Notes under the pieces: model-generated
What the model saw: only the letters and a program-made list of their open reading frames with translations
The model's database searches: none
Told to the model about the DNA's origin: nothing
Program-made: the position numbers and the translations under genes
Virus record (IMG/VR): IMGVR_UViG_3300042890_002798
Location: 1-58,038 of that record
Strand: one strand, 5' to 3'
DNA from: a virus
Taxonomy: Duplodnaviria; Caudoviricetes
DNA length: 58,038 bases
Part shown: piece by piece, positions 14,929-58,038 of the stretch
How positions within the stretch are numbered: position 1 is the stretch's first letter
How the letters are laid out: each line of letters opens with the position of its first letter

Positions 14929-15522
14929 ATGCCTCTCCAAAAGGGTAAAAGTCAAAAGGCGATTTCTGCTAACATTTCCGAACTGGTTCATTCGGGACGC
15001 CCGCAGAAGCAAGCAATTGCCATCGCCCTGGACACGGCCCGCAAAGCTATGGATCGTGGCGGCGGAGTGCCAAAACATGTCGCCAAGAGAGTCGTGCATG
15101 AAGGGCCGATTAATGTGGCAATACCTGGCCGCACAGACAGGCTCCCGGTGCATGTCTATTCCGGGTCTTATGTCATTCCGGCGGATATTGTGTCAGGTCT
15201 TGGAGAGGGCAATACGCTGGCCGGGAATGATGTTATTCGTCGCATGTTTTTCCATGATTCCAGCCCGCTCAAGAGAGCCAAGGGCGGTCGGTCCATGATG
15301 ACTGAAAAATATGGACTGCATGGCTATTACCACAATGACACGCGAAAGATCGTACCCTGTATTGTTGCCGGCGGAGAGTTCATCATTCCTCCGGAAGTCG
15401 TAGAGGAATTAGGCGAAGGCGATATGGATAAGGGCCACGCCCTTCTTGACTCGTTTGTTAAGTCTCAAAGACGTAAATTGCGTCAAAAGCTCGCTAAATT
15501 GCCTCCGCCCGCGCAGGACTAG
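14929..15522 (+). CDS. Modular protein: KQAIAIAL basic module, GG linkers and a duplicated GE/SxVIP..VV..LGEG domain
   Basis: Internal duplication at aa ~72-107 and ~142-177; two GG motifs. Confidence 0.7.
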   Translation: MPLQKGKSQKAISANISELVHSGRPQKQAIAIALDTARKAMDRGGGVPKHVAKRVVHEGPINVAIPGRTDRLPVHVYSGSYVIPADIVSGLGEGNTLAGNDVIRRMFFHDSSPLKRAKGGRSMMTEKYGLHGYYHNDTRKIVPCIVAGGEFIIPPEVVEELGEGDMDKGHALLDSFVKSQRRKLRQKLAKLPPPAQD

Positions 15523-15528
15523 TCTACG

Positions 15529-15993
15529 ATGAAATTTGATGATTGCCCGGATGTTCGGATTGCCCAGCAGTCTGATGAGGAAGAGCTTGTCCGGTTAGCC
15601 CAAATGGCTGCCGAAGAGGATAATCAAGGCACATTTGACATAGATAAAGTCAGGTCTGTTCTTAATCTTCATTTCCATAAAGCCGGTGGGATCATTGGCG
15701 TTATAGGAAATCCGGGCCATAAATTAAAAGCTTTTACACTGTTAGCAATTACCCAACCATGGTATAGTTCAGATGGTCAGGTTCAGGAGTTGTCATTGTT
15801 TGTTGACCCTGACCACAGAAAAACGGATTATGCCAAGCAGTTGATGGTATTCAGTAAAAAGACATCGGAAGCTCTTAATCTTCAGCTTTCTATTGGCGTT
15901 ATAGCTAATGAAAAGACTGAAGCAAAGGTTCGTTTGTATCAAAGGCAATTCCCACAGGCGGGAGCCTTTTTTCGTTATAATCCGCAGGCTTAG
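15529..15993 (+). CDS. GNAT-family acetyltransferase-like protein preceding the ejection genes
   Basis: VRIA..D, LFVDPDHRK...A..L, RLYQR motifs. Confidence 0.75.
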   Translation: MKFDDCPDVRIAQQSDEEELVRLAQMAAEEDNQGTFDIDKVRSVLNLHFHKAGGIIGVIGNPGHKLKAFTLLAITQPWYSSDGQVQELSLFVDPDHRKTDYAKQLMVFSKKTSEALNLQLSIGVIANEKTEAKVRLYQRQFPQAGAFFRYNPQA

Positions 15994-16004
15994 GGAATAG
16001 AATT

Positions 16005-19000
16005 ATGCCGCAGACGACGGGCCAGAATTGGGGCATTTACAACCAGACATACACGCCAGCGGCGCAGACAGATATTTTCAATGCCATGCGTCGGGCGCAG
16101 GATGTCTCGCAGCTTCCGTTTCAGCCGTATCTTGGCCAGACCGTCGCGGGTTTTGCGCCGTCCGAAATTGCCGCCATGCGCGGTATTTATGGCTTGCAGG
16201 GATATTATGAGCCTTATGGACAGCAGGCGACGACTTTACTTGGTCAGGCCCAGGCATATGCCAATCCAAATGACCCCAGATTGCAGCAAATCCTTGGCGC
16301 GCAAATACCTACGTTTTCTCAACAAGCTGTTCAGCAATATTATAGTCCATATCAGAAAAATGTCATCGACGCTACGATGGCCAATATTGCCCAGGAGAAT
16401 TTGCGCCAGCAAAATGATCTGACTGCTCGCGCTATCCAACAGGGCGGATTTGGAGGAGACAGAACTGGTATCGCAAGGGCTGAGTTAAATCGTCTTCAGA
16501 ACCTACAGAATGCCCAGACGCTCTCTCAATTGCAAAATCAGGGTTATGCCCAGGCATTAGGAGCATTTCAGCAACAACAGGATTTTGCAAGGCAGAAGCA
16601 GGCTCAGGATTTTGCTCAATATAGTGCGGCAAGAAACGCCGCTATTCAGGCTGCTCAGCAGGGCGCTTACTCATTAGGACAGCTTGGCCTTCAGGGCCAG
16701 CAAGCCGGTATGCAGGGCATTCAGGCGCTTATGGGCGTTGGCCAGATGGAGCGCGCGCTTGGTCAGGCGCAGCTTGAGGATCAGTTCAAGCGTTATATGA
16801 CTGCCATGGGCTATCCCTGGGAGACCGCACAGTGGCTTGCTTCTATCGTTGGCTCTCTTGGACCGCAGGCTGGTGGCACAACGTCCGGCGTCAGCTTCGG
16901 CGGATCCAGCCAGCAGACGCCAGGCCCCAGCCCGATTTCATCAATAGCTGGTCTGGCGACAAGCGGCCTTGGGGCTTTGCTCAAGCTGTTTCCCGGAGCC
17001 GGGTTTAAAGACGGTGGCCGCGTTGGCAAGGCTGATGGCGGTGGATTTGGTGAAATTCAGAGCCTTGGCCTTGAAAGCCCGTGGTCCGGATTTGACCCTC
17101 GCCGGTTGAACGAAGAGAAAATGCGGCAATGGGTTTCTCGCCTTGATGTTGATGAGGCGGTTAAGGACCAGTTGCGTGAACGCAGTTGGCTTAATCCGGA
17201 TGAGACCTATGAGCCTTATCAGGATGAAGAAGAAGACCGTTCATTTTTGATGAGCCATGGCGGTCGCGCGGGTTATAAGGCTGGGGGCCGTCCATATGAG
17301 GGAGGGTCTTCTTATATTGAGTCTGATACTGTTCCCTATATTGACAAGCTAGAGCTTGCGCCTCCCAAGGCTCCGACGATTCCAAATCCCAAAAAGCCCG
17401 AGGCTCCTGAAGTCGGGAAGCTGGAAGGCGATGATAGTTTTGGTGATCTTGGCAAGATGATCGGGTCGCTGGGAACAAATGTTTCGAAGTATTTCTCCAC
17501 GAGAAGCTCTAATCCTGCCGCAGCTATTACAGCTGACGAAGCTAATACAGAGTCTGAAACAGCCTCAGAAGAGCAATATGGCGGTCGCGTCGTAAAGGCC
17601 GATGGTGGTGGATTTGGAAATTGGCTCTCTTCGCTCCGTCAGGCTGGCAGCCCGACTGCTCCATATTTGCAAAATCAGGCCTCACAGCCACGACCGATGA
17701 TCTCCAATATTGGAGATTTGTATAAATTTGCTTTCGGCAGAGAAGCCGATCCTGAAGGAGCAAGGTTCTGGCAGCAACAGCAGCAAGCTGGCATGTCTCT
17801 TGGGGATATTGCAAAGAATATTCTTTCCTCTCAAGAGGCAGTTTCAAGATACGGGCAAGAAAACATCGGCGGATTGCAGGATGTTTTTAGTAAATTTACT
17901 TCTACGCCCGCTGCGCCAGGATCTGTTTCTCCGTTCCAGACGCTTTTGACGACTGGCGGCGCGCCGGTAGTAAATCCTGATGGAACGCCTGTTACGCTGG
18001 AGGATGTTCAGACTCCATCCGCCGTTCAGGGACCGCCCGGACAAGGTCCGTATTCAGAAGGCGACATTGCAGCGGCGGGACAAATTTCTCCACCTGATGC
18101 CGGATTGATGCTGATGGTGGGCAAGAATCCGATGCTTGCCGTTGTTATCAATCAGCAGCAGCAAGAGAAGCAGGCTGCGGCCAATCGCAAGGTCGCAGAA
18201 ATGCGCGCCTATAATGATCAGGTTTATAATGCGCCGAGGTCTCCTATCGGATACTTTATGAACCTGGATTACAGGACAATGAGCCCGAGCGGCTTGTTCG
18301 GCTTCAATCCTATTTCTCCTTATTATTCGCCTATTGTTCCCACGGCTATTAAAAGAAATGCTGGTGGCAAGGTCGAAGAACCGCGTCCGGGACTTGATCT
18401 TGGCGGTATTGCCAGACTTCCAGGGCAAACGTCTTCAATGATGACCGGCCCTGCCTCGCAGACATCATTCTCGACTAACCCTCCGGGTTACAATCCGAAT
18501 GCCTATGGGCCGTATCGTGAGAGCGGTGGCCGTGTTGGCATGAGGGATGGTGGAGATCCTTCAATCATTGACCGGATTGCGAGAGGCATTGCTGCAATAG
18601 AAAGCGGCGGCTCCAAAAACCCATATGCTGTCGTCGGCGCAAGAAGCCGTAAGGGTGATCGTCCGTATGGCAAATATCAAATTATGGGCGCAAATATCCC
18701 GTCATGGGGTCGTGAGGCCGGGTATCCTAATCTGACCGTCCGCGAGTTTCTGTCTAATCCTAAAATCCAGGAAGATGTTGCGAGAACCCAGTTCGCCAAA
18801 ATATTTGCCAAGAGCGGCAGTCCGAATGCCGTTGCTGGCGAATGGCTAGGCGGCCCAGGTTGGAGACGAAACAGAAGCGCCGATGTTTTGGGAACAACTG
18901 TTCCGGAATATATCCGTCGCTTTGCTCGCGCTTATGGATCTCCAACTGATGTTGTGGCTTCTTCGCGCCCTGCCTCCCAAACTCCTGTCAGAATCGCAAA

Positions 19001-21092
19001 AGTCCGACCGCTGACTGGTGAGCGTGTTGGCGCGGCAACATCTTCTGTGGCTCCCGTTTCAGCCGCTGATGCTCAATGGGAAAACCGCACGCGGTATGAT
19101 TACAGCAAACCTTCGGCTGAGAGGGTTCCGTCTGCGGGTTCTACCGTCGCCGCTCCAGCCAAAAAGGGTTTTAGCCTTTCTGATCTGAATCCTATTGGAT
19201 CAGCACAGGCTGCCGAAGCTGGTGTTGAGCCGAAGCCTGAATCCTTCAAGGATGCGGCTGCTCGTATGCGCGGTTTGAGCGGAACCTATGCTCCGGGTGT
19301 CACAGAGCAAAAATCCCTCTACACTGATTTTGGAAATCTTATTCCTGATCGGGATATGCTGGAGGAGACGCCATACGCCCAGACCATGGTTGGCTCTCCG
19401 ATGAGCATGAGCATTTGGGATGGGCTCGGATTTAGTGAGCCTTCCAACGATGTTGTCTCTGAAGAACCCGCCAGGGCCAAGCCGCAAGCTGCTCCGGCAT
19501 CGGAAAAACGAGAGCCTGAAAAAGGTCTCTATTTCGGTGATTTCCGGGATTACGAGCCGTGGAAGTCTGATCCGATCGGCGGCTTCTTTGATGAGCTTAT
19601 GGGCGAAAAGCCACAGAGCAAAACGATGGGCAAGCGCCCGGATGTAAACTCCGGAGACGGACTGGGCTTCCTCAAGGAGCTTTTCAGTGGTCGCGCGAGT
19701 GGCGGGCGAATGGGCTATGCCGATGGTGGATCGCCGGAAGACGAAGATACGTTGACCATTGATCCGGAATTGTTGAGCCCTGAGCCCATGGGTCCGACAA
19801 AAGGATTTGATCTGGCTGAAGAGCCGACGCCCGAGTCGGATGTTGTGTCTGCTGAAGAGGCTCCCGCCACAAGGCGCGCTCCTGCCGCTTCTGCCGCTCA
19901 GAAGCCCGCTGAGCGTGGGTTTGGATCTATGCTGGGTCTTGATCGTGGGAGACTTGATTCGCTTGCTGACGCCATGATTGCCGCCGGTTTTGGCATGATG
20001 GCTGGCAAGTCTCCGAATGCCTTCCAGAATATCGGCATGGGTGGCCTTAAAGGCATCGAGGCTTATCAGGCCGGTGAGGCTATCCGGGCGCGTCGGGAGG
20101 GTGAACTTGCCAAGATCAGACAAAAAGAAGCTGAATCTGATCGTGAGCGGAACTATTTGACGGAATTTTTAGGCGCTCCATCTGCGGAAGCCGCTCCAAT
20201 CCGTCCCGTCTCCAGGCAGGAAGGCGCAGATACTGAACTTGAGCCTCTTTATGATGAGCTGGAAAGATATCAGCGCGGCATCGCAGCGGCTCCCAGCCCT
20301 GAAGCTGCTCGACGGCTGAAGCTTCTTCAGGACAATATCAAGTTCAAAATCCAGCGCCTGAAAGAAGCGCAGACACAAAAAGAACGAGCAATAGAAAAGG
20401 CTCCTTCAAGCGTCTTTGAAAAGAAGCAGGCTGAAGTAAGCGCCTCTGAGTTTGCAAAGGATTATCAGGAAACACAGAAAGCCGCTGAAGCCGCAAGAAA
20501 GAGCGATGTTATTCTTCGCAGCACGTTGGATGCTCTTAATGATCCGACTGTTTATACAGGCGCGGCTGGCGAAACTGTTCTGGAAACCAAAAAGAAAATG
20601 GCCGGTTTGCTGGACCAGTTCCCGTCCCTCAAGAACGTCATTCCTGAGATGTTGACGCCATCGACATCCGGCATTGCCCAGACGGAAATGCTGAAATCCG
20701 GCGCGATCAAGTCTGTTCTTGAGGCTGCTGGAGGAAGGTTTGGCGCTGGCTTCTCCGATGGCGACCGCAGAGCGATGGAAGCCGCATCATTTGGCGTCGG
20801 CACATCCAGAGAGGGCAATATCAAAATCATCAAACAGGCTCAGGCTGCGAACAATCGCATCCAGGAAATCGCCCGTATGCAGCAAGATTATATCTCGCGC
20901 AATGGCGTCCTCGATGATGGGTTCAATCGTGAGCTTCAGCAGTATGCAAAAGCAAATCCCTTGTTCGACGCAAAGGGAAATCCGGTTGAGGAGGGTAAAG
21001 CTCCTCCGGCATCTGCGCAGACCGAATCAAAACCACGATTTACTCGCGAGCAAATTCAGGAAGAACTTCGTCGCCGTCAGGGAGCGCGATAA
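16005..21092 (+). CDS. Giant DNA-ejection protein with DUF4214-like and lytic transglycosylase modules
   Basis: Gln-rich N-terminus (SPYQKNVID, GGFGGDR); LYKFAFGREADPEGARFW; IAAIESGG..GKYQIM; about 11 GG motifs. Confidence 0.75.
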   Translation: MPQTTGQNWGIYNQTYTPAAQTDIFNAMRRAQDVSQLPFQPYLGQTVAGFAPSEIAAMRGIYGLQGYYEPYGQQATTLLGQAQAYANPNDPRLQQILGAQIPTFSQQAVQQYYSPYQKNVIDATMANIAQENLRQQNDLTARAIQQGGFGGDRTGIARAELNRLQNLQNAQTLSQLQNQGYAQALGAFQQQQDFARQKQAQDFAQYSAARNAAIQAAQQGAYSLGQLGLQGQQAGMQGIQALMGVGQMERALGQAQLEDQFKRYMTAMGYPWETAQWLASIVGSLGPQAGGTTSGVSFGGSSQQTPGPSPISSIAGLATSGLGALLKLFPGAGFKDGGRVGKADGGGFGEIQSLGLESPWSGFDPRRLNEEKMRQWVSRLDVDEAVKDQLRERSWLNPDETYEPYQDEEEDRSFLMSHGGRAGYKAGGRPYEGGSSYIESDTVPYIDKLELAPPKAPTIPNPKKPEAPEVGKLEGDDSFGDLGKMIGSLGTNVSKYFSTRSSNPAAAITADEANTESETASEEQYGGRVVKADGGGFGNWLSSLRQAGSPTAPYLQNQASQPRPMISNIGDLYKFAFGREADPEGARFWQQQQQAGMSLGDIAKNILSSQEAVSRYGQENIGGLQDVFSKFTSTPAAPGSVSPFQTLLTTGGAPVVNPDGTPVTLEDVQTPSAVQGPPGQGPYSEGDIAAAGQISPPDAGLMLMVGKNPMLAVVINQQQQEKQAAANRKVAEMRAYNDQVYNAPRSPIGYFMNLDYRTMSPSGLFGFNPISPYYSPIVPTAIKRNAGGKVEEPRPGLDLGGIARLPGQTSSMMTGPASQTSFSTNPPGYNPNAYGPYRESGGRVGMRDGGDPSIIDRIARGIAAIESGGSKNPYAVVGARSRKGDRPYGKYQIMGANIPSWGREAGYPNLTVREFLSNPKIQEDVARTQFAKIFAKSGSPNAVAGEWLGGPGWRRNRSADVLGTTVPEYIRRFARAYGSPTDVVASSRPASQTPVRIAKVRPLTGERVGAATSSVAPVSAADAQWENRTRYDYSKPSAERVPSAGSTVAAPAKKGFSLSDLNPIGSAQAAEAGVEPKPESFKDAAARMRGLSGTYAPGVTEQKSLYTDFGNLIPDRDMLEETPYAQTMVGSPMSMSIWDGLGFSEPSNDVVSEEPARAKPQAAPASEKREPEKGLYFGDFRDYEPWKSDPIGGFFDELMGEKPQSKTMGKRPDVNSGDGLGFLKELFSGRASGGRMGYADGGSPEDEDTLTIDPELLSPEPMGPTKGFDLAEEPTPESDVVSAEEAPATRRAPAASAAQKPAERGFGSMLGLDRGRLDSLADAMIAAGFGMMAGKSPNAFQNIGMGGLKGIEAYQAGEAIRARREGELAKIRQKEAESDRERNYLTEFLGAPSAEAAPIRPVSRQEGADTELEPLYDELERYQRGIAAAPSPEAARRLKLLQDNIKFKIQRLKEAQTQKERAIEKAPSSVFEKKQAEVSASEFAKDYQETQKAAEAARKSDVILRSTLDALNDPTVYTGAAGETVLETKKKMAGLLDQFPSLKNVIPEMLTPSTSGIAQTEMLKSGAIKSVLEAAGGRFGAGFSDGDRRAMEAASFGVGTSREGNIKIIKQAQAANNRIQEIARMQQDYISRNGVLDDGFNRELQQYAKANPLFDAKGNPVEEGKAPPASAQTESKPRFTREQIQEELRRRQGAR

Positions 21093-23119
21093 TGGATGAT
21101 AATGATCTTTCCCAATATTCCACTGAAGAGCTTCAGAGAATGTTGGGCGAGCAAGAAGCTCCTGCGCCCACGGGAATTGAGAGTATTCCTGAAGAAGAAC
21201 TTACCAGAATGGCTCAAGAAACGCAGCCAGCAGAAGGCGACTGGCGTGGCGAAGTAGCTGCCGGCCTTCGTGGCGTTCGTCGTTCCTTGCCGTTTGGACA
21301 GGACATTGGCGCTGCCGCTGAAGCTTTTCGGAAAGGCGTGCCATTTGAGGAAGAAAAAAGAGCCCAGGTCGCCAGAGACATTGAGCTGGAAAAACAATAT
21401 CCAAAATCGACGCTTGCTGGTGAGGTTGGTGGGTTTTTTGTTCCCGGATTCGGTCTTGCTGGTCCGATGGCCAAGTCTGAACAGGCTGTTGCATCCCGAC
21501 TAGCGCCAAAGGTTGGTGAGACTGCGGCCAGAATTGTCGGCGCTGGAGCCGCTGGCGCGGGCGCTGGGGCTATTCAGGGCTTCGGAGAGGGCGTAACTCC
21601 AGAGGAGCGCCTAAAGGGCGCTACATCGGCTGCCGGTATCGGTGCGCTTGGCGGAGCGGCATTGCCTGCTGCTGGGGCCGCAGTAAAGCGATCTCTTAAT
21701 GAGGCTGAACTGGCGGCGCAAAGGCTCGGGATTGGGGCTCCAAGATATGTAACCAGCGAAGCCGCCTTGCCAAAAACCACGGCTGCGGCTCTTGAGGCTG
21801 TGCCTGTTACCGGCGGCGTTATCCAGAGAGCAGCCAGAGAAGGAATTGAACAGCTTGGCGAAGCAACCGAGCGGATTCCGGGCGTTTCTCCGCTGGTTGA
21901 TAGATATGAAGCCGGAGCCGCCGCGAAACAGGCGTTAACGGGTTGGGCGGGAACACGATCTGAAAATGTCGTCTCAAAAGCATATGACGCTGTTGACAAA
22001 TATATTAACCCGAATGTAGCCACGCCTCTTTCAAATACCGCGTCTACTGTCCAGCAAATTGGATCCAAAAATTTGCTGGCCCATCTCCCGGAAGAGACTG
22101 CTGCGACCAAGCTTTTGATGGACGCCGTGACTAACCCGGAGGGACTGACGTATGAGGGAATTAAATTCCTTCGCACGCATGTCGGTCAGAAAATGAAGGA
22201 TGCGCTTCATACAACGGGTGTCGAGCAAACTGAACTCAAGCAGCTTTATGGTTCTCTCACCAAAGATCTCCGGGATGCGGTAGAAAAAGCTGGTGGTCAG
22301 CGCGGATTAAGCGCATTTGAGCGTGCAAATACTCTAAATGCGCAGGTTCAGGCCAAGCGCGATCAGCTTTACAAGATTGTCGGCGCGGCGGGTGATACGC
22401 CTCCGGAGGCTGTTTTTGATAAAATATACAGAATGGGAACGGATAAAGCCGGAGCCAATATCGAACTTCTCCGCAATGCCAGAACATCCATTAAAGGAAG
22501 CGATTGGGAAGACGTAACATCGGGCATTATCAATACGATGGGTCGTGATGCCGAAAAAGCTTTTTCTCCGGATCGTTTTGTGACTGCCTACGGGAAGCTT
22601 TCTGATCGCGGCAAGGATCTGATTTTTGGCGCTGCCGGCAATCCGGTAAGACAAGCGATGGAAGATGTAAATCTTCTATCCAGCAAATATGCACAGGCGG
22701 CCAAGAGCAGGAATGTTTCAAAGACTGCTCCGGTTCTGCTTGGGGCTGGCGCATTGCTTGGATTGGCGACCGGAGCGACGGGAATAGGCGGAACTGCCGC
22801 TGGCATATTGGGAACAATCCCGGTTGCAATGCTTCTGGCCAGCCCAAAAACCGCAAAAACCGTTTCCAATTTCATCAAAAAGCCAAGTAAGTTCAGCTAT
22901 AATGCTTTATTGAATGCTGCGAGACTTGAGGCTAGGAAACCTGAAGAAGATCGCACGCCGAGGGCTGCTGGAGGAAAGGTTTATCCTGCCAAAAAGCTTA
23001 GCCTTATGGAGAAGGCTGCAAGGAAAGCCTTTAATGATATTGCTCTGGAATCGCGCCCTTTGATGGATATGCCGGATGAGGCAATCGTCAAGGCGCTGGA
23101 TTTGGCGAAAGACAAATGA
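21092..23119 (+). CDS. DNA ejection/internal virion protein
   Basis: Ala/Gly-rich hydrophobic helices; last structural gene before lysis; RAAGGKV near the C-terminus. Confidence 0.7.
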   Translation: MDDNDLSQYSTEELQRMLGEQEAPAPTGIESIPEEELTRMAQETQPAEGDWRGEVAAGLRGVRRSLPFGQDIGAAAEAFRKGVPFEEEKRAQVARDIELEKQYPKSTLAGEVGGFFVPGFGLAGPMAKSEQAVASRLAPKVGETAARIVGAGAAGAGAGAIQGFGEGVTPEERLKGATSAAGIGALGGAALPAAGAAVKRSLNEAELAAQRLGIGAPRYVTSEAALPKTTAAALEAVPVTGGVIQRAAREGIEQLGEATERIPGVSPLVDRYEAGAAAKQALTGWAGTRSENVVSKAYDAVDKYINPNVATPLSNTASTVQQIGSKNLLAHLPEETAATKLLMDAVTNPEGLTYEGIKFLRTHVGQKMKDALHTTGVEQTELKQLYGSLTKDLRDAVEKAGGQRGLSAFERANTLNAQVQAKRDQLYKIVGAAGDTPPEAVFDKIYRMGTDKAGANIELLRNARTSIKGSDWEDVTSGIINTMGRDAEKAFSPDRFVTAYGKLSDRGKDLIFGAAGNPVRQAMEDVNLLSSKYAQAAKSRNVSKTAPVLLGAGALLGLATGATGIGGTAAGILGTIPVAMLLASPKTAKTVSNFIKKPSKFSYNALLNAARLEARKPEEDRTPRAAGGKVYPAKKLSLMEKAARKAFNDIALESRPLMDMPDEAIVKALDLAKDK

Positions 23120-23923: not shown

Positions 23924-23934
23924 TGGAGAATAGA

Positions 23935-24386: not shown

Positions 24387-24388
24387 AT

Positions 24389-47435: not shown

Positions 47436-50400
47436 TGGACATTAAAGATATCCGTGACAAGCAAATCCGCGATGCTTTGATGATGGCGGCTGATCGTGCC
47501 TCCCGTGGCCGCAAGAAAGATTCGCCTAAAGAAAAACCGATGCCCAGGGATTTGGAGACTTTTTACAATCCGGAGGCAGGTTCGCGAATAAAAGACGGAA
47601 TTTTGGAGCCTGGTGACTATGGTCCTAACTATGGCGCAGATGTAAAGAATTGGCGCGAAAAGCGCGGAGCGTATGGTCGGGAAAAAGGCTACAATCCCTG
47701 GGCCGATCCGGAGAATATGTATACTCATCCGTCCGAGGAGCGCCACGACCCGAATGACCCGATTTATAACGTCAGCCCGGAGGAATATCGAAAGGGCGCT
47801 TATGGTCGCGGAGTATATGCTTTAAGGAATGGTGGTCGCGCCGGTATGGCTACAGGCGGCGATCCAACAAGTAATTACATAAGCTCGCTATATCAAAACA
47901 TTATGGGCCGAGAGGCTGATGTGGGCGGCGCTGAATATTGGAAACAGCAGCTTGAAGAGGGAAATATTACTCCTTCAGATATATTGTATAATTTTGCGCA
48001 ATCGCCTGAATTCAAAAATGTTTATCAATCTGATCCGAGCAAGGCTGTAAGCTCTCTTTATCAAGCTGCTCTAGGCAGATCTCCGGATCAGGCAGGTCTT
48101 GATTACTGGAATCAGCAAGTAAAAAGTGGTCTAGGATTAGGAGATTTGGTTTCTGGGTTTACGGGTAGCGAAGAAGGTAGGTCTTACCAAAGCTACAAGT
48201 TCCCTGGACTGTATAACATTAATGATAGTGTTGCCGATCAAGACAGAAAGTATTCGGAACGATTAGTTGCGGATTTGTATCATTCCATTTTAGGTCGTGA
48301 GCCAGATCGGGAAGGTTTTAATTTTTGGACTCGTCAAATGATTGATGGCAAACAATCATATGATGATGTTGCTAATGCTCTTTTCGATTTGCCAGAAGCA
48401 AAAGAAAATTTTGTCAATCAAACTTACAAACAATTTTTGGGTAGAGAGCCGGATGCAGAGGGTAAAAAATATTTTACTCAAGCTCTACAGTCAGGACAAG
48501 CAACGCCTGATCAAATTTATGAAATAATTCAAAATAGCGAAGAAGCTGGCGATTTCGAAATATCTAACTTTATTCAGGATCAATATAAAGGATTGACTGG
48601 GCGCGATCCATCCAGGCAAGAGCTAAACTCAGCATTAGATCAATTAAAAAGTGGAGCTGTTACATTTGATCAGTTTCACTCCAATATGTTTAATTCTCCC
48701 GAATCTCAACAATATCAGGCAAGTAATTTTGAACCGTATCAGGTAGCGAGCGCTGAAGGTTCGGTAACCGTCGCTCCCAAACAGCTTCGAACTGCTTATG
48801 AGTATAGCAAAGCTAATGATGAACTCATTCGAAGCCTTCCTATTGAGCAGCAGGTGGGCGCTCTTCTTCAACAGGAAGGTGGAATTTGGGTTGATAAAAT
48901 TTTAAATCCCAACACACCGAAAGAAATAAAAGATCAAGCTTTAAAGCAATTAGAAGGCATTGTTAATGTTGTAGCTAACCGCGCCGCAGTTGGTTTGACA
49001 GAGAATAGCGGAGGCAAGAAAAGTCCTTGGCGAGGCTGGTTTGATCGTCAGGAAAACGATCCAAAAAGCGTTACCAGTCAAATTTTGGCTCCTTCAGCTT
49101 TTTCCGCAATGAAAATTGGAGTGTCAAAATTAGCTAAAGAAGGCTACAATGCTATTGTAAATCAAGCTATTCCAAACTTTAACAAAGAAGAATATCAACC
49201 AATTATGGATATGATCAAGGGCGTTTTGTCTGGTCAACGTCCTGATATAACCCAAGGTGCAACACATTATAAAGCAAATTATGTCCATCCAGGCTGGGCA
49301 AAAAGGCTCCCTCTTCACACGGATTTAGGAGGAGCGCCTGGAGGAAAGGGACCATATCATCAATTTTATGGAGCCAAGGACAGGGCCGCTGAAGCCCAGC
49401 AGGCCAGATTTGGTGTATCCTATGGTGGCGCAGATGTTGACCCGGCCCTTGCTGGAGCTGGCGCAGGCGTAACTGGCGGTGGCAGTGGGACTGGTTATAT
49501 TCCGGGCGGCGGATCTGGATATGTTCCAGGCGGTGGCGGAATATCTGGACCCGCCGATGTTTCAGGAGCCGGCGGAGATTATACCGGCGGTCATGGCGGT
49601 GGCGGAACCGGGCATGTCGGCGTCGGCACCGGTCATGGCGGCATCCACGGTGGGACACACACAGGAACTCCGCATGTGACTGGCGGCGTTCACACTGCTG
49701 GCCACGGCACGACCTATACCGGCGGTCATGGCGGCCCGCATGTAACGGGTGGCGTTAGTTACCTTGATTCCGGTGGCTATCATCCCGGTGGCTTTCATTC
49801 CGGCGGCGATTTTGGCTCTTATGCGGGCTCGCATGGATTTGGGCATTCGACAGTCGGCCACGGCGGTCATCATGGTAGCCATGTCAGTCCATACCATGGC
49901 TGGTCGTGGGATATGTTCCACTCACAAAACCCTTACGGCATTCATCACAGCTTCAAAAACGGCGGCGCTGTTAAAGACGCTCTCCGCATAGCCAGAGCTT
50001 CAGGTGGCGGCGCATGGACTCGCAAAGAGGGCAAGAACCCTGAAGGCGGGTTGAATGAAAAGGGCCGCGCCTCTCTTCGCGCGCAGGGCCATGACATCAA
50101 GCGCCCACAGCCGGAGGGCGGTTCTCGCAGGGATAGCTTCTGCGCGAGAATGAAGGGCATGAAGGCCAAGCTCACCAGTGCTGAAACGGCCAATGATCCG
50201 GATAGCCGGATTAATAAGTCGCTTCGCAAATGGAATTGTGCGGACGGCGGTGCGATTGATGATGCTCTTATGGTGGCTCGCAAATCTGGCGGAGAAGTCT
50301 GGAACAAACCGCGCCCTAAATCTCTCGGTAAGCCCGAAAAGCTGACATCAAAAGAAAAGGCAAGCGCCAAGCGCATGGCCAAGGCTGCTGGCCGTCCTTA

Positions 50401-50488
50401 TCCTAATCTTGTTGACAATATGCGAGCCGCCAAAGCTGATGGCGGTTCTATTGATGATGCTCTCCGCATTGCGAAGAGGGCTAAATAA
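47432..50488 (+). CDS. Modular protein: DUF4214 repeats, SleB-like cell wall hydrolase, Gly/His region and small basic domains joined by GG linkers
   Basis: Five LY...LGR.PD..G..YW-type repeats; NVVANR..AFS..DIT.GATHY...P.WA..HQFY; SFCARM module; PYPNLVDNM module. Confidence 0.8.
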
Positions 50489-50544
50489 CCGGATATCCGA
50501 AGGCGCTCTTAGGCTATCCTTTTACTTTTTATAGGAATAAAACA

Positions 50545-51900
50545 ATGGCACATCCGTATAAATCAGAAGCGAAAGCTGGTCACAGCAAGAAGCTTGCGAG
50601 CTATGGCGCAAAGAAAGAAGCGAAGAACTGGGCTGGCGAAAAGGCGTTGAACACCGACCGTCAGGCCGGCATGGACATCATTGAAGAAGAGCCGTCCCTG
50701 TCCAAAAAGACCATGGACCGCATCATGCGCAAGGCTGGCGGTTCCGTTAAGGGCAAGGATGCTGTCAAGCGTCTGGATAAGGTTTCCCGCAAGGGCAAGC
50801 GCCTGAAGGCTGCCGATGGTCTCCCGTCCATTGAGGAGCAGCTTAAATCGGCTGAGCGTCTGAAGGAAATCCGCGCCCGCAAGATGCCGGAAGAGGGTCC
50901 GACGCGCGAGGAAGCCGAGAGCATCAATCGCAAACAGCGTTATTCCATTGAGGATCTGGCTGCTCCCGGTCGCAAGAAGGGCGGCAAGGTCTCCCACATG
51001 GAATGGGAACATTCCAAGAAAGATTTGGCCCAGGATCGCAAGCTGGCCAAAAAGCACGGCATGTCGCTTGAGAAATGGGAAAAGTCAAAGCTTGACGAAA
51101 AGCATGACAAGCAGCAGTCGACCGAAGGTCTAAAGAAGGGCGGTCGCGCCATGCGTGGCTCCGGTGGTCCGGTTGCTCCGAAGACGAAGTCCTACACTTC
51201 TGAGAACAAAGTCACCAAATCGGCCAAATCCGGCGATCGCATGGGCGCTCTTACGGAGGCCGCAAGGACGACTGATCGGGTTAAGAAGTTTGGCGGTGGT
51301 GGTCTGACTGAAGAAAAGTCCACGAGCAAGAAAGCCGGCAAGGCCACTAATCTGACGATTAACATTGGTGGTCCCGGTCAGGGTGGCGCGCAGCCGATGC
51401 CGCCGGCTCCTGCTATGCCGCCTGCTCCTCCGCCGCCTCCGCCCATGCCTCCGATGGGACCGCCGATGGGTGGAATGCCGCCTATGGGTCCGATGGGTGG
51501 TGGTATGCCTCCTATGGGCGGAATGCCTCCGATGGGTGGCGCTCCGATGATGCGTCAGTCTGGTGGCCGCGTTGGCAAACAGATTGGTGGCGGCATGATG
51601 GGCGCTTCGGCTCCGGGTTTCGCCAGCAATGTCCCGCCGATGGGCATGGGTTATGGCCAGCAGATGGATAATCAGCAGGTCAATCCGATGGATCTGATTG
51701 CTCTTGGCAATGCGCTTCGTAGCGGTGGCATGGGAATGGGAACGGGCATGGCTCCGCGCGGCTTCAAGAAGGGCGGTCGAGTCAATCCTGACGTTCCGGT
51801 CAAGCAGCCGGGTCGAACGGCTGAGGGCTACGCGAAAATGGATTATGGCTCTGTTAGCGGTAAGGGCCGCCGCCAAAAGATCCTTGCGCAGGAAGACTGA
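50545..51900 (+). CDS. Lys-rich and Pro/Met/Gly-rich protein with about 8 GG motifs
   Basis: AGGA RBS; RKAGGSV, RKKGGKV, KKGGRA, RQSGGRV, FKKGGRV. Confidence 0.8.
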
Positions 51901-51902
51901 TC

Positions 51903-52055: not shown

Positions 52056-52056
52056 A

Positions 52057-52260: not shown

Positions 52261-52263
52261 GCC

Positions 52264-52680
52264 ATGCCGGCTTTACAGATGTTGCATGATCGCGATCCAA
52301 AAGAAGCTCTTTTGGAGAAGGTAGGCGATCTTTCTGGTATTGAGATATTTGGATCAGACGTTCTGGTTGCCATATATCGCAGGCCAGAAAAAACAAAATC
52401 GGGTATTATTCTTGCGGATTCCACCAGATCAGAGGATCGGTGGCAATCAAAATGCTTTTTGGTCCTTAAATTAGGTCCGACAGCCTATCTGGATGATGAG
52501 GGAAATCGTTTCAGGGACATTAAAGAGGGCGATTGGGTCGTAGCGCGCTGCTCGGACGGCTGGGAAGTCACTCTGAATACCCTGAAAACAGGAATTTCCA
52601 AGGAAGACACGGTTTCTTGCCGGATTTTCTCCGATCACGCAATCCGCGCCCGTGTCGCTGACCCTGATTCCATCTACTGA
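52264..52680 (+). CDS. groES: GroES-like co-chaperonin
   Basis: VLV.....EKTKSGIIL....; VLKLGP.AY; KEGDWV. Confidence 0.88.
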   Translation: MPALQMLHDRDPKEALLEKVGDLSGIEIFGSDVLVAIYRRPEKTKSGIILADSTRSEDRWQSKCFLVLKLGPTAYLDDEGNRFRDIKEGDWVVARCSDGWEVTLNTLKTGISKEDTVSCRIFSDHAIRARVADPDSIY

Positions 52681-52690
52681 GGGCTGAAAA

Positions 52691-53638
52691 ATGGAAGATA
52701 TTGAAGAAAATTTGGGTGAAACCGTCAAATTGGACGAAGATCCCTCTGTTGTTGTTGAGATTGAAGAGCCAAAATCCGAAAAAAAGGCTAAAAACGAGCC
52801 TGATGAGCGTGAAGTTGCTCTTAATGAGATGCGCGCTCAGTATGAAGAGCAGAAAAAGCGCCTTGAGATTGAGCGTAGAGCCCGTGAACAGGCTGAACAA
52901 TATGCCTACCAGCAGGCAAAGCAGGCTCACAGCGCCCGCGCAGAGGCAGAAGACAGCAATCTCCGCACTATTTTGAACGCCATCGCTGCCGACGAGCAGG
53001 TTGCGACAAATGCAGAGCGTGTTTACGCGGATGCTGTGGCTACAGGCGATACCGCACTGGCTGCCAAGGCTCAGCGTGAGATGGCCAGAGTTGAGGCTCG
53101 ATTGCTTCAGCTCGAAAATGGCAAGCGAGCGCTTGAGGAAAGGCTACAGACCGCCGAGGGCAGGGTATCTGAGCCCGAAATGCCCAGGTTTGCGCCTCAA
53201 CAGCCGGCTGATCCTGTTGAGATGTATGCTTCCCGGCTAACGCCCAAAAGCGCAGCCTGGCTAAGATCGCATCCTGAAGCGGCCAATTCAATTAATAAGC
53301 TCACGGCGGCGCATACTGCTGCGGTAGAGCTTGAAGGAATTGAAGCAGAGTCTCCGGAATACTTTGCTTACATTGAGAGCAAGCTTGGTTATTCCGGTGG
53401 CGGGAGAGACAGCAAGAGCGAACCCAGAAGGTCTAAATCCAATATAAGTTCAGCGCCGGTTTCTTCGTCAAGCTCCATGATGGCTCCGCGTTCCAGCGGA
53501 TCATCTGGTTCTATTACGCTGAGCCCTGCTGAAGTTGAAATGGCCATGCTGGCTGAGCCTGATTTGCCGCGTGAGAAAGCTCTGGAAGCTTATGCCCGGA
53601 ACAAACAGGCGCTTCTCCGCGAAGGCAAACTTAATTAA
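52691..53638 (+). CDS. Scaffolding protein
   Basis: Acidic N-terminus, coiled coil, SAPVS, TLS..E..MA......YA.NK C-terminus. Confidence 0.7.
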   Translation: MEDIEENLGETVKLDEDPSVVVEIEEPKSEKKAKNEPDEREVALNEMRAQYEEQKKRLEIERRAREQAEQYAYQQAKQAHSARAEAEDSNLRTILNAIAADEQVATNAERVYADAVATGDTALAAKAQREMARVEARLLQLENGKRALEERLQTAEGRVSEPEMPRFAPQQPADPVEMYASRLTPKSAAWLRSHPEAANSINKLTAAHTAAVELEGIEAESPEYFAYIESKLGYSGGGRDSKSEPRRSKSNISSAPVSSSSSMMAPRSSGSSGSITLSPAEVEMAMLAEPDLPREKALEAYARNKQALLREGKLN

Positions 53639-53649
53639 GGATTTGGACA

Positions 53650-54201: not shown

Positions 54202-54208
54202 GCAATTG

Positions 54209-54237
54209 TTGACTTGAAAGTCAATAAAGGCTAAATA
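54209..54237 (+). promoter_or_regulatory. Capsid operon promoter with a palindrome
   Basis: TTGACT-17-TAAATA; TTGACT-TGAA-AGTCAA inverted repeat. Confidence 0.6.
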
Positions 54238-54406
54238 TTCGCAGACTACGGAATTCTGTCTAGTAATAGACAAAAGAATTAGGTGGGGACCGCAGGGTTG
54301 GTCCCTCCTTTTATAAAGTCGATCCGCGCCGGATTGGCATTCATCTTCTCCGCTAAAATCTCCCACGCGCTGTTGGCGATTAGGCACTCTCTGAATTCAG
54401 GAGGGT

Positions 54407-55045
54407 GTGTTGACAAACACCTTTGCTCCCTTCGGATTCCGTCCAGTTTCGACCAGCAATGGCCCGATCAACTGGCGTGTTTCCACTCGTCGCGTCGCGG
54501 CGGGAAATTCTACGCCCATCTATAAGGGCGACGTTGTCATGCCGGTAGTTGGCACGCCGACGGGTTATATTACGCTTGGCGTTCCTGGCACGATTGCCGC
54601 GACGGTTCCTGCCGCCGGCATCTTCTGGGGCTGCCAGTATCTTTCGACGACGCAGAAGCGGACGGTCTGGTCTCAGTATTGGCCCGGTTCTGACGCGACT
54701 GGCGACGTTATTGCGTTTGTGATTGACGATCCGAATGCTCGCTTTGTCGTTCAGACGAGCGGTTCTTCGTTCCAGATCACTGGCACTAACTCCGCCTTCA
54801 CGTCGTCTCCGGTTGGCCAGTATGCCACGTTCAACGCGGGCGCTGGTTCGGCCACCACGCAGCAGTCTGGCCAGTATCTTGATACGGTCGGAAGCACGGC
54901 TGCCTATCCGTTCATTATCACGGACATGGTCATTGACCCGCCGGGAGCTAATGGCACGGATGCGACGAGCAACTACAACTATGTGGTTGTCGGCTTCAAC
55001 AACGAGTGGCTGCGCAGCAATGCGGGCGTCACTGGCATCAGCTAA
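54407..55045 (+). CDS. Capsid decoration/minor capsid protein
   Basis: N..APFGFRP; G+F.GC.Y; V.DDP..F; immediately upstream of the major capsid gene. Confidence 0.7.
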   Translation: MLTNTFAPFGFRPVSTSNGPINWRVSTRRVAAGNSTPIYKGDVVMPVVGTPTGYITLGVPGTIAATVPAAGIFWGCQYLSTTQKRTVWSQYWPGSDATGDVIAFVIDDPNARFVVQTSGSSFQITGTNSAFTSSPVGQYATFNAGAGSATTQQSGQYLDTVGSTAAYPFIITDMVIDPPGANGTDATSNYNYVVVGFNNEWLRSNAGVTGIS

Positions 55046-55058
55046 GGAGTAGAGACCA

Positions 55059-55970
55059 ATGGCTGTTAATCTTAGCGCCATCCGCGATCTGCTCCTTCCG
55101 GGCCTTCGCGGTGTTGAGGGTAAGTATCCTCAGATCCCGAGTCAGTGGGACAAGGTCTTTGAAAAGGCCAAGTCCAACATGGCTCTCGAGCGTACCGCTG
55201 AAATGCGTTACCTCGGCCTTGCCGCCATCAAGACTGAAGGCGGTGCGGTTAGCTTCGACAACAACGCTTCCGAGCGTTACGTCTATAATCAGGAGCATTA
55301 CGAGATCGGTCTCGGCTACGCGATCACTCGTAAGGCGATTGATGACAACCTGTATAAGACCCAGTTCACGCCCACGAATCTTGGCCTGATCGAGTCCTTC
55401 GGTCAGACGAAGGAAATCTATGGCGCGAACATTCTTAACACGGCGACGACGTATAACTCGGCGGTCGGCGGTGACGGTGTTGCTCTCTGCTCCACCTCGC
55501 ATCCGATTGACGGCGGCGTTGTTGCTAATCGCCCGACTGTCGACGTTGATCTTAACGAAGCCTCGCTGCTTAACGGTATGATCAGCATTCGTCAGAACTT
55601 CAAGGACATCGCCGGCCTGAAGATGTTTGCGCGTGGTCGCAAGCTCATCATTCCGCCGACCCTTGAGCCGACGGCGATTCGCCTTACCAAGACGGAACTC
55701 CGTCCGGGCACGGCAAACAACGACGTCAACGCGATCCATACGACCGCAGGCGGTCTGCCGGAAGGCTACATGGTCAACGACTTCCTGACTTCGACGAAGG
55801 CCTGGTTCCTTCTGACGAATATCAAGGGTCTTGTCTACATGGAGCGTATCCCGTACGAAATGGATATGCAGGTAGACTTCACCACGGATAATTTGCTAGT
55901 GAAGGGATATGAACGTTATAGTTTCGGCTACTACAATTGGCGCTCAATTTTTGGTAGCTTCCCGACCTAA
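55059..55970 (+). CDS. Major capsid protein
   Basis: LLPGL; K.EG; LGYAIT..A..DNLY; GDGVAL....HP; NDVNA; ERYSFG; strong codon bias. Confidence 0.9.
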   Translation: MAVNLSAIRDLLLPGLRGVEGKYPQIPSQWDKVFEKAKSNMALERTAEMRYLGLAAIKTEGGAVSFDNNASERYVYNQEHYEIGLGYAITRKAIDDNLYKTQFTPTNLGLIESFGQTKEIYGANILNTATTYNSAVGGDGVALCSTSHPIDGGVVANRPTVDVDLNEASLLNGMISIRQNFKDIAGLKMFARGRKLIIPPTLEPTAIRLTKTELRPGTANNDVNAIHTTAGGLPEGYMVNDFLTSTKAWFLLTNIKGLVYMERIPYEMDMQVDFTTDNLLVKGYERYSFGYYNWRSIFGSFPT

Positions 55971-55975
55971 TTGAT

Positions 55976-56020
55976 TTAAGTCGCTGTATTTATTCAACAA
56001 TGCAGCGACTTAATATTTTC
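55976..56020 (+). terminator. Hairpin/terminator after the capsid gene
   Basis: TTAAGTCGCTG...CAGCGACTTAA followed by TATTTTC. Confidence 0.6.
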
Positions 56021-56030
56021 GGGTGTTGGC

Positions 56031-56059
56031 TTTACATTATCATTAAGCCAAAGTATAAT
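56031..56059 (+). promoter_or_regulatory. Promoter of the endonuclease cassette
   Basis: TTTACA-17nt-TATAAT. Confidence 0.7.
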
Positions 56060-56092
56060 CTTCAAATCGTAGCTACGATTGGGAGATATGCG

Positions 56093-56737
56093 ATGGTAAA
56101 AAATGTAGAGCTGACATTCGAAGAATTGTCCAATGTTTTGAGTTATGACGCCTATTCAGGTTCTTTTACCTGGAAGGTGACAATTAACTCCAGAGCTAAG
56201 GCAGGAGAAAAAGCAGGCGTTTGGCAGCGTATGCAAAATGGCAAAGATTATTTTTCGATCACTTATAAGGGTCGAAAGTTATCTGGAGCCCAGCTTGCAT
56301 GGTTGCTTCATCATGGCGAATGGCCAGATAGGTCAACCTTCTTCATTGATGGCGACACGACAAATCTTCGGATATCAAACATCAAGCTAGCTGATTACAA
56401 GGCAGAGCGGGTTGTTAGAGAAGATGGTTCTACTCGCTATAAAATGTCTAAGGATCAGCAACGACACTATGGCTTGATGCGCTATTATGGAATGTCTGTT
56501 GGCGAATATGCCGAGATGTTTCGGAAGCAGGATGGCAAATGCGCCATCTGCAATCAGCCGGAAACTGATAAAGATCGTCATGGGAACATTCGTGTTCTAG
56601 CAGTCGATCACTGTCATGCTACTGGCGCTGTTCGGGAACTTCTTTGCTATGCCTGCAATAGTATGCTTGGGCAAGCCAAAGATAACATTGATGTTTTACT
56701 TGCTGGTGCTGAGTATCTCAAAAAGCATTCAGCTTAA
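56093..56737 (+). mobile_element. Homing endonuclease: degenerate HNH plus endonuclease VII domain
   Basis: GGAG RBS, ATG 56093; QDGKCAIC...LAVDHCH.TG.VR.LLC..CN..LG. Confidence 0.85.
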
Positions 56738-56762
56738 CGCACAACCCCAAAGGATGTGAATA

Positions 56763-57821
56763 ATGGCACTTACCAATTTTCCCAACGGCATTACCTCTTT
56801 CGGTGTGCCGGTCGTTGGTGGCGTTGGCGGCATTCCGCTGACTGGCACCTGGTGGTTTGTTAACCCGGCTTCGGGTTCTGACGCCTATGATGGGCAGTCT
56901 CCCGAGACGCCTTTCCAGACGATTTATGCTGCCTATCAGGCTGCGGCTGACGGCAATAACGACGTTATTGTCCTGATCGGCAACGGTGCGACCAGCGGCA
57001 CGGCGCGTCTTTCTCTTGCGAATGCGCAGGCGGCAAACAGCGCTGCGACGAGCGGCTCTCTTATTTGGGCGAAGAATGCTCTTCACCTGATTGGCGAGGG
57101 TTCTCCGACCGGCATCAGCAATCGCGCGCGCATGGCTCCGCCGACAACCTATACGGCCGCGACCTTCCTTAATAGTCAGCCGGTTGCTTCGACGCCGGTT
57201 GTGAAGGTCACTGGCTCTGGATGTATCTTTGCGAACTTCCAGATCTGGGGTGGTTTCTCGACGGGTAATGCCGGTATGATTACCTGGCAGGACGAGGGCA
57301 ATCGTAACTATTACGCCAGCGTCCATTTTGCTGGTCAGTCTGACGCAGCTTCGGCTGGCGGCACGGCTTCGCGTTCGCTGGTTCTTTCCGGCGGCGGCGA
57401 GCATGTGTTTCAGGACTGCACTGTTGGCGTTGATACTGTTCAGCGCACGACGGGCGTTACGCGCACGCTTGAGTTCAAGGACGGCACGGCTCGCAACTCG
57501 TTCCTTGGTTGCGTATTCCCGGTCACGCTGGCGTCTGCTTCGGCTGCTTCTCGGACGATCTACACGGCTGCTGCGGCGGCTGCGGATCGCTGGCAGCGGT
57601 TTGATGGCTGCACGTTCATCAACGCGGTTGGCTCGGGTTCAACGGCCCAGACGGCTCTTGTCGATCTGGCTGCCTCGACGGGTGGCGTTGTCATCCTGAA
57701 GAACTCGACGGCTGTTGGTTCGACGGATCTGTTCGCGAATGCGACGACTGCCGGCCAGATGTATATCGACGGTGGCGCTCCGACTGCGGCTACCACGGCC
57801 CTTGCTGTTAATCCGGCCTAA
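56763..57821 (+). CDS. Virion surface protein (head fibre-like)
   Basis: TNFPNG..SFG N-terminus; FV....GSD..DG.SP.TPF.TI; beta-helix-like. Confidence 0.65.
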   Translation: MALTNFPNGITSFGVPVVGGVGGIPLTGTWWFVNPASGSDAYDGQSPETPFQTIYAAYQAAADGNNDVIVLIGNGATSGTARLSLANAQAANSAATSGSLIWAKNALHLIGEGSPTGISNRARMAPPTTYTAATFLNSQPVASTPVVKVTGSGCIFANFQIWGGFSTGNAGMITWQDEGNRNYYASVHFAGQSDAASAGGTASRSLVLSGGGEHVFQDCTVGVDTVQRTTGVTRTLEFKDGTARNSFLGCVFPVTLASASAASRTIYTAAAAAADRWQRFDGCTFINAVGSGSTAQTALVDLAASTGGVVILKNSTAVGSTDLFANATTAGQMYIDGGAPTAATTALAVNPA

Positions 57822-57845
57822 TCCCAAAGATTAAGGAGATAGAAT

Positions 57846-58038
57846 ATGAAAGCTCATTACAAGAAGGGTGGCTCGGTTGAGCCCCAGGGCAAGATGGTTG
57901 CCAACCCGACTCCGTCCGATGTTTACGCCGGCGAAGATTCGGAAGTTGTGAAGTCTGCCAAGAAGCGCAAGAAGGGCGGCAAGGTTTGTGGCCCAATGGC
58001 CATGAAGCGCGCTGACCGCAAGCCGCGCAAGTCTGGCG
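57846..58038 (+). CDS. 5' part of the junction-spanning GG-motif protein
   Basis: AAGGAG RBS; MKAHYKKGGSVEPQGK...; continues to 198. Confidence 0.85.
   Translation, partial: MKAHYKKGGSVEPQGKMVANPTPSDVYAGEDSEVVKSAKKRKKGGKVCGPMAMKRADRKPRKSG
57912..58038. repeat. Terminal direct repeat, right copy
   Basis: Identical to 1-127. Confidence 0.95.

Follow-up and report, generated by a model that had tools for sequence, protein, structure and literature searches.

Bacteriophage T4 marks its internal proteins IPI-III with a capsid targeting sequence, a short peptide that sends unrelated proteins into the prohead, later to be ejected with the DNA. It is a single N-terminal peptide of about ten residues and is removed by the gp21 protease at Leu/Ile-x-Glu. 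To our knowledge, little is known outside T4 of how podoviruses select the proteins that they pack and inject. Adenovirus and African swine fever virus repeat a GG-centred consensus in several internal virion proteins, systems that need a virus-encoded clan CE cysteine protease and whose consensus is not known to include V at the second position after GG (+2). Variable, enzyme-bearing proteins encoded next to the portal are carried in the head as MuF-fused toxin domains and as the cargo of crAss-like phages, and we know of no common linear motif described for them. Here we describe a di-glycine tag in a viral genome record of 58,038 nucleotides (IMG/VR IMGVR_UViG_3300042890_002798; Duplodnaviria, Caudoviricetes), the whole of which we call the window. 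In its refined form the tag reads [Y/F/K/R]-[A/K]-x-G-G-x-[V/I]-(D/E), and about 30 copies are concentrated in seven open reading frames (ORFs), named by their first coordinate: 57846, 245, 14929, 16005, 21092, 47432 and 50545.

The native targeting peptides of encapsulins, as presented in PMC7925596, include cores GG-D-L-G-I-R-K and L-T-V-G-S-L-R-R. Those peptides are short and contain Gly, a hydrophobic anchor and nearby basic residues, and they sit on unrelated cargo and bind the inner face of an HK97-fold shell. The tag is likewise carried by unrelated proteins encoded beside HK97-type head genes, with DUF4214, cell-wall hydrolase, DUF6321 and ejection-protein domains in the window and M15 and LysM proteins in relatives, all in the head block. 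Unlike the encapsulin peptides presented there, it has no GSL core, its own being [AK]-x-G-G-x-[VI], and its copies are mostly internal and multiple rather than single and C-terminal. The shell also differs, being a DNA-filled phage head with a separate scaffold, and tag-capsid binding is only a candidate interaction. With the T4 sequence the tag has in common its placement on unrelated internal or ejected proteins; it differs in being depleted at N-termini, in its multiple copies and in its GG core, and no gp21-like protease was found in the scanned ORFs. Since it fails the sequence and position features of both, we place the tag outside the encapsulin-peptide and T4-sequence families, which are its closest analogues in logic. 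Unlike in adenovirus and African swine fever virus, no clan CE protease was detected in the scanned ORFs, and unlike MuF cargo the carriers have no MuF domain (Pfam, PHROGs). Literature searches, supplements aside, found no description of the motif, of the tag strings or of DUF6321.

A non-random motif in seven proteins

We regard the existence of the tag and its distribution as well supported: it is a genuine and conserved linear motif, new to the literature as far as we found, on the presumed internal and ejected proteins of a highly abundant group of aquatic phages. An earlier reading of the letters alone, without database searches (the sequence-only reading), had listed motif strings for the seven ORFs, and every one is present at the ORF to which it was assigned; the span it gave, 14929-58038, omits two carriers, 57846-198 and 245-502. 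The motif is more frequent than composition-matched shuffles give, the comparison that this reading had asked for. Across 89 heuristically called ORFs (18,805 amino acids, aa) and 2000 within-protein shuffles, the loose pattern [KRHFYWM]xxGGx[VIAM] occurred 25 times against 7.2 expected (shuffle maximum 18), and 21 of these 25 matches lay inside the seven ORFs, where 3.4 were expected (shuffle maximum 10). The strict pattern [KR]xxGGx[VI] was found 14 times (1.6 expected, shuffle maximum 7) and the tandem form GGR[VAM][GVM] 8 times (0.23 expected, shuffle maximum 3). Counted per GG, the flanks accompany 21 of the 100 sites in the seven ORFs and 4 of the 74 in the remaining 82 ORFs (Fisher odds ratio 4.65, p = 0.004). 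The within-protein shuffles and the per-GG comparison together rule out a composition artefact. A DNA-level repeat is ruled out by the codons for G, R and V, which differ synonymously between copies, and the conservation of the motif is therefore at the protein level.

The four loose matches outside the seven ORFs fall in the tailspike (5899), a GNAT acetyltransferase (15529), the terminase (39295) and the major capsid protein (MCP; 55059), about the number expected by chance. The proposed restriction of the motif to internal proteins, a set presumed from gene position and homology, holds in the window.

Conservation and anatomy of the tag

Related phages retain the motif in their cargo ORFs and in homologues of four window carriers. 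A portal-based scan of viral contigs gave 200 candidates, of which 197 proved to be relatives, and 80 loci were kept; 77 were counted, two that are 99% identical to the window (L005 and L006) and one more without a recognised plus-strand portal ORF being left out. Cargo was defined by position only, as plus-strand ORFs of at least 80 aa from the portal to the first GroES, scaffold, 53650 or MCP match. The 135 cargo ORFs held 278 tags in 85,410 aa (3.25 per 1000 aa), and the 691 other ORFs of the same loci 23 tags in 187,463 aa (0.12 per 1000 aa), a density 27-fold higher in cargo, with 0.19 versus 0.02 tags per GG. Most cargo ORFs lie beyond the reach of BLASTP, with 4 matches to 47432 and 10 to 50545 versus 79 to the portal. 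At least one tag of its own was carried by 84 of 99 complete cargo ORFs.

By portal, the closest named relative is the uncultured spring phage MW202675 (47% identity). At 25-34% portal identity stand the pelagiphages HTVC027P and HTVC023P, the Roseobacter phages CRP-901/902, DSL-LC04 (a metagenome-assembled genome), the Planktothrix phage Pag-Yong1 and Caulobacter phages; HTVC027P is a cultured pelagiphage that carries the tag. Five whole relatives, MW202675 and four viral records (G001 to G004), have tags in their cargo ORFs and in homologues of 14929, 16005, 21092 and 57846. When whole-genome tag counts were compared with 200 shuffles, 8 of the 10 enriched genomes lay above every shuffle and 1 equalled the shuffle maximum. 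The window has 23 tags (3.4 expected, shuffle maximum 8), MW202675 16 (4.5, 12), G001 12 (4.5, 12), G002 14 (4.6, 11), G003 17 (3.6, 9), G004 17 (4.1, 10), HTVC027P 14 (2.5, 8), MW202545 13 (3.7, 12) and DSL-LC04 9 (3.6, 8); HTVC023P, with 5 (3.8, 11), is not enriched. Counted over the parts examined, there was no enrichment in CRP-901 (2 tags, 2.9 expected, shuffle maximum 9; 50 of 53 kb) or HTVC035P (1, 0.9, 5; 30 of 36 kb). Pag-Yong1 (40 of 65 kb) has three or four clear tags in post-capsid proteins and no overall excess (6 versus 3.6 expected). In the Caulobacter RW locus (27 of 62 kb) the greedy ORF caller gave 6 versus 1.6 expected (shuffle maximum 5); we count it as tag-less because a plus-strand six-frame reading gave only the GroES loop and two chance-like matches.

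The anatomy of the tag was read from 268 distinct copies in cargo ORFs, numbering residues outward from the GG. Position -3, where the search pattern allows only K, R, H, F, Y, W and M, is Y in 71 copies, K in 67, R in 62 and F in 51 (251/268); position -2 is A in 124 and K in 86 (210/268), and position -1 is small or charged. After the glycines, +1 is K in 75, E in 47, A in 30, D in 21 and R in 20, with I, L, V, M and Y together at 17 of 268 and Ile at one; Pro follows GG directly in 10. Position +2 is V or I by definition, and around all isolated GG pairs V is enriched 4.6-fold there, while +3 is D or E in 34%. Tandem pairs are spaced by 8 residues. The variable positions follow the charge of the carrier protein: net charge is zero or negative in 63 of 94 tags of the first cargo ORF, and +2 or more in 85 of 99 tags of the last (the 50545 position).

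Several likenesses were considered and dropped. An amphipathic helix of the form D-x-A-L-x-I-A, seen in 47432 and the 21092 family, follows only 10 of the 268 tags and is not part of the core. The KGG stress-protein repeat gave one weak Pfam match (E 0.24, in 1 of 30 sequences). RTX, KH and KOW motifs differ in the register of the hydrophobic residue.

Carriers, modules and genomic setting

Bases 1-127 of the window are an exact direct repeat of 57912-58038. This is the assembly overlap of a circular or terminally redundant genome, and with its first 127 bases duplicated at its end the window is a complete, circularly assembled podovirus genome of 57,911 bp unique length. Because of this duplication ORF 57846 continues at 128-198; it encodes (57846..58038 + 128..198, plus strand, as are all seven carriers) a small basic protein of 87 aa with tags at aa 5, 41 and 61, and tagged homologues follow the MCP gene in G002 and G001. 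ORF 245 (245..502) encodes 85 aa and comprises a basic module of about 55 aa (phrog_15706), the tag KRHGGQV and a C-terminal RAGGG. Its module is 54% identical to HTVC027P gp44, which has its own tag upstream.

The 197-aa product of 14929 (14929..15522) starts with a two-helix N-terminal module (phrog_2423, weak DUF6496), followed by a tag, a beta-hairpin/helix module (which we call the GEFV module), a second tag and a second copy of that module. Both tags lie in linkers of its AlphaFold2 model (residues 45-53 and 112-137) where the predicted local distance difference test (pLDDT) is below 50. The protein has 1392 homologues, of which the 120 best matches are 56-100% identical, and G45, the second Gly of the first site, is invariant in 30 aligned homologues. 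ORF 16005 (16005..21092) encodes a protein of the ejection type, 1695 aa long, in which there are 11 GG units and five of these occur as tandem pairs; its N-terminus matches a DNA ejection protein PHROG and is followed by DUF4214 and then a phrog_24990/6654 region. The 675-aa product of 21092 (21092..23119) has one tag, RAAGGKV, at aa 624, 45 residues before the C-terminus, and in 6 of 6 genomes the members of its family have just one tag, always 39-48 residues from the C-terminal end.

Directly after the portal gene, 47432 (47432..50488) encodes a 1018-aa cargo protein with four DUF4214 copies, a weak cell-wall hydrolase match, a Gly/His-rich stretch, DUF6321 and phrog_34011, its modules flanked by tags. 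The last cargo gene before the GroES-like gene, 50545 (50545..51900), encodes a basic protein of 451 aa with 7 tags and a Pro/Met/Gly-rich stretch, an architecture retained in relatives. Low-complexity runs occupy aa 660-830 of 47432 (Gly/His/Thr-rich; 49410-49900) and aa 283-335 of 50545 (Pro/Met/Gly-rich; 51390-51550), the latter kept in the 50545-like proteins of relatives.

The sequence-only reading had placed the motif at domain boundaries, and this holds wherever domain matches or a structure model allow a judgement, in 16005 and 47432 as well as in 14929. The phrog_4287 match of 16005 (21-324) is followed by copies at aa 334-346, and its phrog_24990/6654 matches (859-999) have copies ahead of them at 838-850. 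In 47432, DUF4214 (from 147) comes after copies at aa 131-143 and DUF6321 (867-934) after those at 841-860, while between DUF6321 and phrog_34011 (955-1002) there are copies at 936-956. Between the tags lie small, strongly conserved modules that change places, and enzyme domains. In HTVC027P the basic module of ORF 245 has a small gene to itself (gp44), and in locus L026 it lies, by eye, inside the 50545-like protein. HTVC027P encodes modules as separate small genes, each with a tag (gp44, gp46, gp47 and gp84), and DSL-LC04 has two small ORFs, each with its own. Between portal and GroES, HTVC027P has eleven small genes, gp44-gp54 (L003, 28689-31460), rather than a few large ones, and several of their products are mini-modules that recur in fused form in the clade of the window.

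DUF6321 has 6,441 relatives within the searched length range and is present in 513 phage records. It forms free-standing proteins of 103-104 aa with a tag directly after the module, as well as multi-module proteins joined by tags. It is not inseparable from the tag, being tagless in T4-like cyanophages (S-SCSM1 gp29, which ends in DUF6321 and is labelled 'virion protein' in its record) and in HTVC035P gp29. The N-terminal 42-residue module of 14929 (14929-15060) is 57% identical to the N-terminus of gp28 of the Acinetobacter phage AP22 (L108, 3001-3126); in AP22 and its relatives, a gene annotated 'head maturation protease' opens with this phrog_2423 module. In Vibrio, Prochlorococcus and Burkholderia phages the module makes up very small ORFs by itself.

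The head part of the genome runs from the terminase (39295) through the portal (45183..47435, plus strand, without a tag; PHROG and homology), 47432, 50545 and two tiny ORFs to a GroES-like (Cpn10) gene that ends the cargo block (52264..52680, plus; Pfam and PHROGs). There follow a coiled-coil protein in the scaffold position, its role suggested by position and composition (52691..53638, plus), ORFs 53650 and 54407, the Mu gpT-like MCP of 303 aa (55059..55970, plus) and the small basic proteins 57846, reached across the wrap, and 245. Next come fibres, a tailspike resembling pectate lyase, paralogous adaptors of the SU10 type and a virion protein of 757 aa (12228), then the block 14929 / GNAT 15529 / 16005 / 21092 and ORF 23244 (179 aa), an endolysin by eye only, for which no Pfam family matched.

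The GNAT acetyltransferase within the ejection-protein block (15529..15993, plus; Pfam and PHROGs) keeps its place in the clade and in CRP-901, and in the T7-like pelagiphage HTVC035P it adjoins internal virion proteins. Between the scaffold-like and capsid genes, 53650-54201 and 54407-55045 are conserved head-module genes; both occur in CRP-901, and 54407 also in HTVC027P. The adaptor region (9701-11735) holds three tandem paralogues of 37-48% mutual identity, of which 9701 matches the SU10 adaptor family, and a more distant fourth SU10-adaptor-like gene lies upstream at 9008. Four HNH-type endonuclease genes, probably homing endonucleases, are found at 11611-12228, 56000-56737, 27011-27373 (minus) and 27565-28053 (minus). 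The pair in the structural module comprises HNH_3 with AP2, between the adaptor paralogues and 12228, and Endonuclease_7 with HNH_3, directly after the capsid gene. A protein with a DnaA C-terminal domain is encoded at 42090-42608, and a homologue of the cell-cycle regulator GcrA at 30754-31422 (Pfam E 2e-11); since GcrA belongs to alphaproteobacteria, the gene gives a hint of the host group.

Docking, cleavage or spacing

We tentatively favour, at somewhat less than an even chance, a role for the tag as a non-cleaved, multivalent docking or tethering peptide that would recruit or hold internal and ejected proteins. The marked set comprises the variable cargo genes that follow the portal, up to the GroES-like and scaffold genes, the ejection block 14929/16005/21092 and the small basic post-capsid proteins. 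The tag sits in flexible linkers between shuffled modules, usually in several copies per protein, and a conserved partner might read it during procapsid assembly or inside the head, so that otherwise unrelated proteins would be recruited or held. The carriers share only gene position and the tag, the flanks are constrained and separate modules each have a tag, all of which argues for a recognised peptide rather than a spacer. Indirect points lean to a label that is not cut. Among the listed terminal tags are 3 ORFs that stop no more than 4 residues beyond the tag, one right at its final residue, and a cut after GG would take just 2-6 residues from them. The scaffold-like gene of the head module is a separate one, and the capsid protein is short, at 303 aa. 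No peptidase family was found with 60 of about 89 ORFs compared with Pfam, 20 with PHROGs and 10 with NCBIfam, small ORFs being unscanned; this agrees with the remark in the sequence-only reading that no prohead protease is recognisable, and a host enzyme may yet serve as the protease. It is possible, if doubtful, that the tag goes further and acts as a portable eight-residue label that would load arbitrary proteins, wall hydrolases and mini-modules that bind nucleic acid among them, into the head for injection, in the manner of encapsulin cargo, with the capsid protein or the 14929 module as its reader.

Candidate readers would be the inner face of the capsid protein, the scaffold, the portal and the hairpin-helix module of 14929. 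The capsid protein evolves unusually slowly for its kind and is far more conserved than the other head proteins: it is 79-94% identical across the clade (portals 40-48%, terminases 41-51%), 79-83% identical in loci whose portals are 40-45% identical, and has more than 7,600 database relatives, of which the best 120 matches are all at least 82% identical. Such conservation fits a surface under many constraints and proves nothing. The 14929 module is the only element that tracks the tag across lineages. The model of the whole 14929 protein (mean pLDDT 74.8) had no Foldseek match in the PDB at E <= 0.001; in a wide structure search the best Z was 5.1, covering the N-terminal helices only, and in BFVD only uncharacterised phage proteins matched. 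By our impression the repeated module may be AbrB/SpoVT-like. PDB sequence searches with 50545 and a 14929 profile returned nothing relevant, 50545 matched only unnamed viral clusters in the Protein Atlas, and the 53650 model (mean pLDDT 65.1) had no PDB match at E <= 0.001. A complex prediction with the capsid protein, 14929 and the 65-aa C-terminal part of 57846, run without controls, scored 0.01 and 0.00 against a mark of 0.32 and speaks neither for nor against an interaction.

Several observations weigh against a docking tag. No binding partner was found, and in the AlphaFold2 model of 14929 its own tags are not packed on its conserved modules. In contrast to classical targeting peptides, neither terminus is favoured, with 5 of 391 tags within 12 aa of the C-terminal end (8.3 expected) and none within 12 aa of the N-terminus (8.4 expected). 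CRP-901 and the Caulobacter RW locus have the same head genes and no tags, so a head can be built without them. That the carriers are in the virion is suggested only by the place of their genes and by weak homology. The ORF calls followed a greedy longest-ORF rule, so that N-termini may be over-extended and a few ORFs of the 'other' class may be on the wrong strand, as where the minus-strand 54380-55081 was chosen over 54407. Lastly, the tags sit where processing sites would, and they join here modules that HTVC027P encodes one by one, as a polyprotein would. What stands of the sequence-only interpretation is a specific, non-random and conserved tag confined to presumed internal or ejected proteins; of the docking and cleavage that it proposed, the indirect points favour docking.

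Cleavage, by a phage or host protease that cuts internal proteins into modules or removes targeting pieces at maturation or after ejection, seems to us rather unlikely. It would account for tags at module boundaries, for the small modules that are free-standing in HTVC027P and tag-fused in the window's clade, and for the junction motif common to standalone and multi-module DUF6321 proteins. Adenovirus and African swine fever virus proteases use di-glycine sites in internal core proteins, and the N-terminal module of 14929 is that of the AP22 gene annotated as a head maturation protease. However, V at +2, a primed-side position, is the flank residue most tightly constrained after -2, and we know of no such primed-side preference among GG-specific cysteine proteases. 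Pro directly after GG, tandem pairs that would free octapeptides and tags at the last residues of ORFs, where a cut would be pointless, also speak against cutting, as do the lack of a peptidase family in the 60 Pfam-scanned ORFs and, as a weak negative, the absence of any protease-like fold match for the 14929 and 53650 models. On the side of a host enzyme, P22 gp20 may need such cleavage, according to a statement in a review (PMC8954989). The tag could also be passive punctuation, a tight GG turn with pairing flanks that spaces modules and keeps proteins flexible for storage and threading with no reader at all. This we consider unlikely. It fits the low-confidence linkers in which tags lie, the variable positions that track carrier charge, the lack of a partner and the related phages that manage without tags, but ordinary linkers would not retain four to five flank positions while portals diverge to about 30% identity. 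Nor would a mere hinge explain the 27-fold density in cargo, the tenfold higher use per GG or the single tag position kept in 6 of 6 genomes by the 21092 family.

A tether to the 14929-type module we think improbable; here the hairpin-helix module would bind the tags and serve as a hub that links cargo with the ejection apparatus, either inside the head or once ejected. Profile matches to the module occur in the tagged clade of the window, MW202545 (E 9.5e-15), Pag-Yong1 (1.1e-10), HTVC027P gp82 (6e-4) and DSL-LC04 (4e-4), and the profile did not detect it in the tagless CRP-901, Caulobacter RW locus and HTVC035P. Each module copy read has a tag 10-50 residues upstream. The module, present twice in 14929, is in every case encoded immediately before the gene for the ejection protein, and the 14929 family exceeds the portal in conservation. 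Against this, HTVC023P has a diverged module, recognised by eye only, without tag enrichment, and the undocked tags of the 14929 model count here too. As the lineages are few and related, the co-occurrence may reflect shared ancestry and is a lead only. Mimicry of the GroES mobile loop, by which tags would bind the host GroEL, is very improbable. The mobile loops of phage GroES-like proteins do fit the pattern (KTKGGII/V in L052, L084, HTVC027P, Caulobacter RW and Pag-Yong1), and a GroES-like gene lies beside the cargo block in all these phages. Yet the loop is hydrophobic directly after GG, where the tags almost never are; tagless relatives encode GroES too, and the loop of the window's own GroES-like protein has SG in place of GG.

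The tag offers a simple sequence rule by which to predict which proteins are internal or ejected in a very large group of environmental phages, with more than 7,600 relatives of the capsid protein and 1,392 of 14929, in a lineage very abundant in fresh water and sea water. If cleavage were the answer, the tag would point to an unrecognised di-glycine-specific protease in phage maturation. As a loading tag, in turn, it would account for the free swapping of cargo modules and would provide a handle for packing foreign proteins into phage heads.

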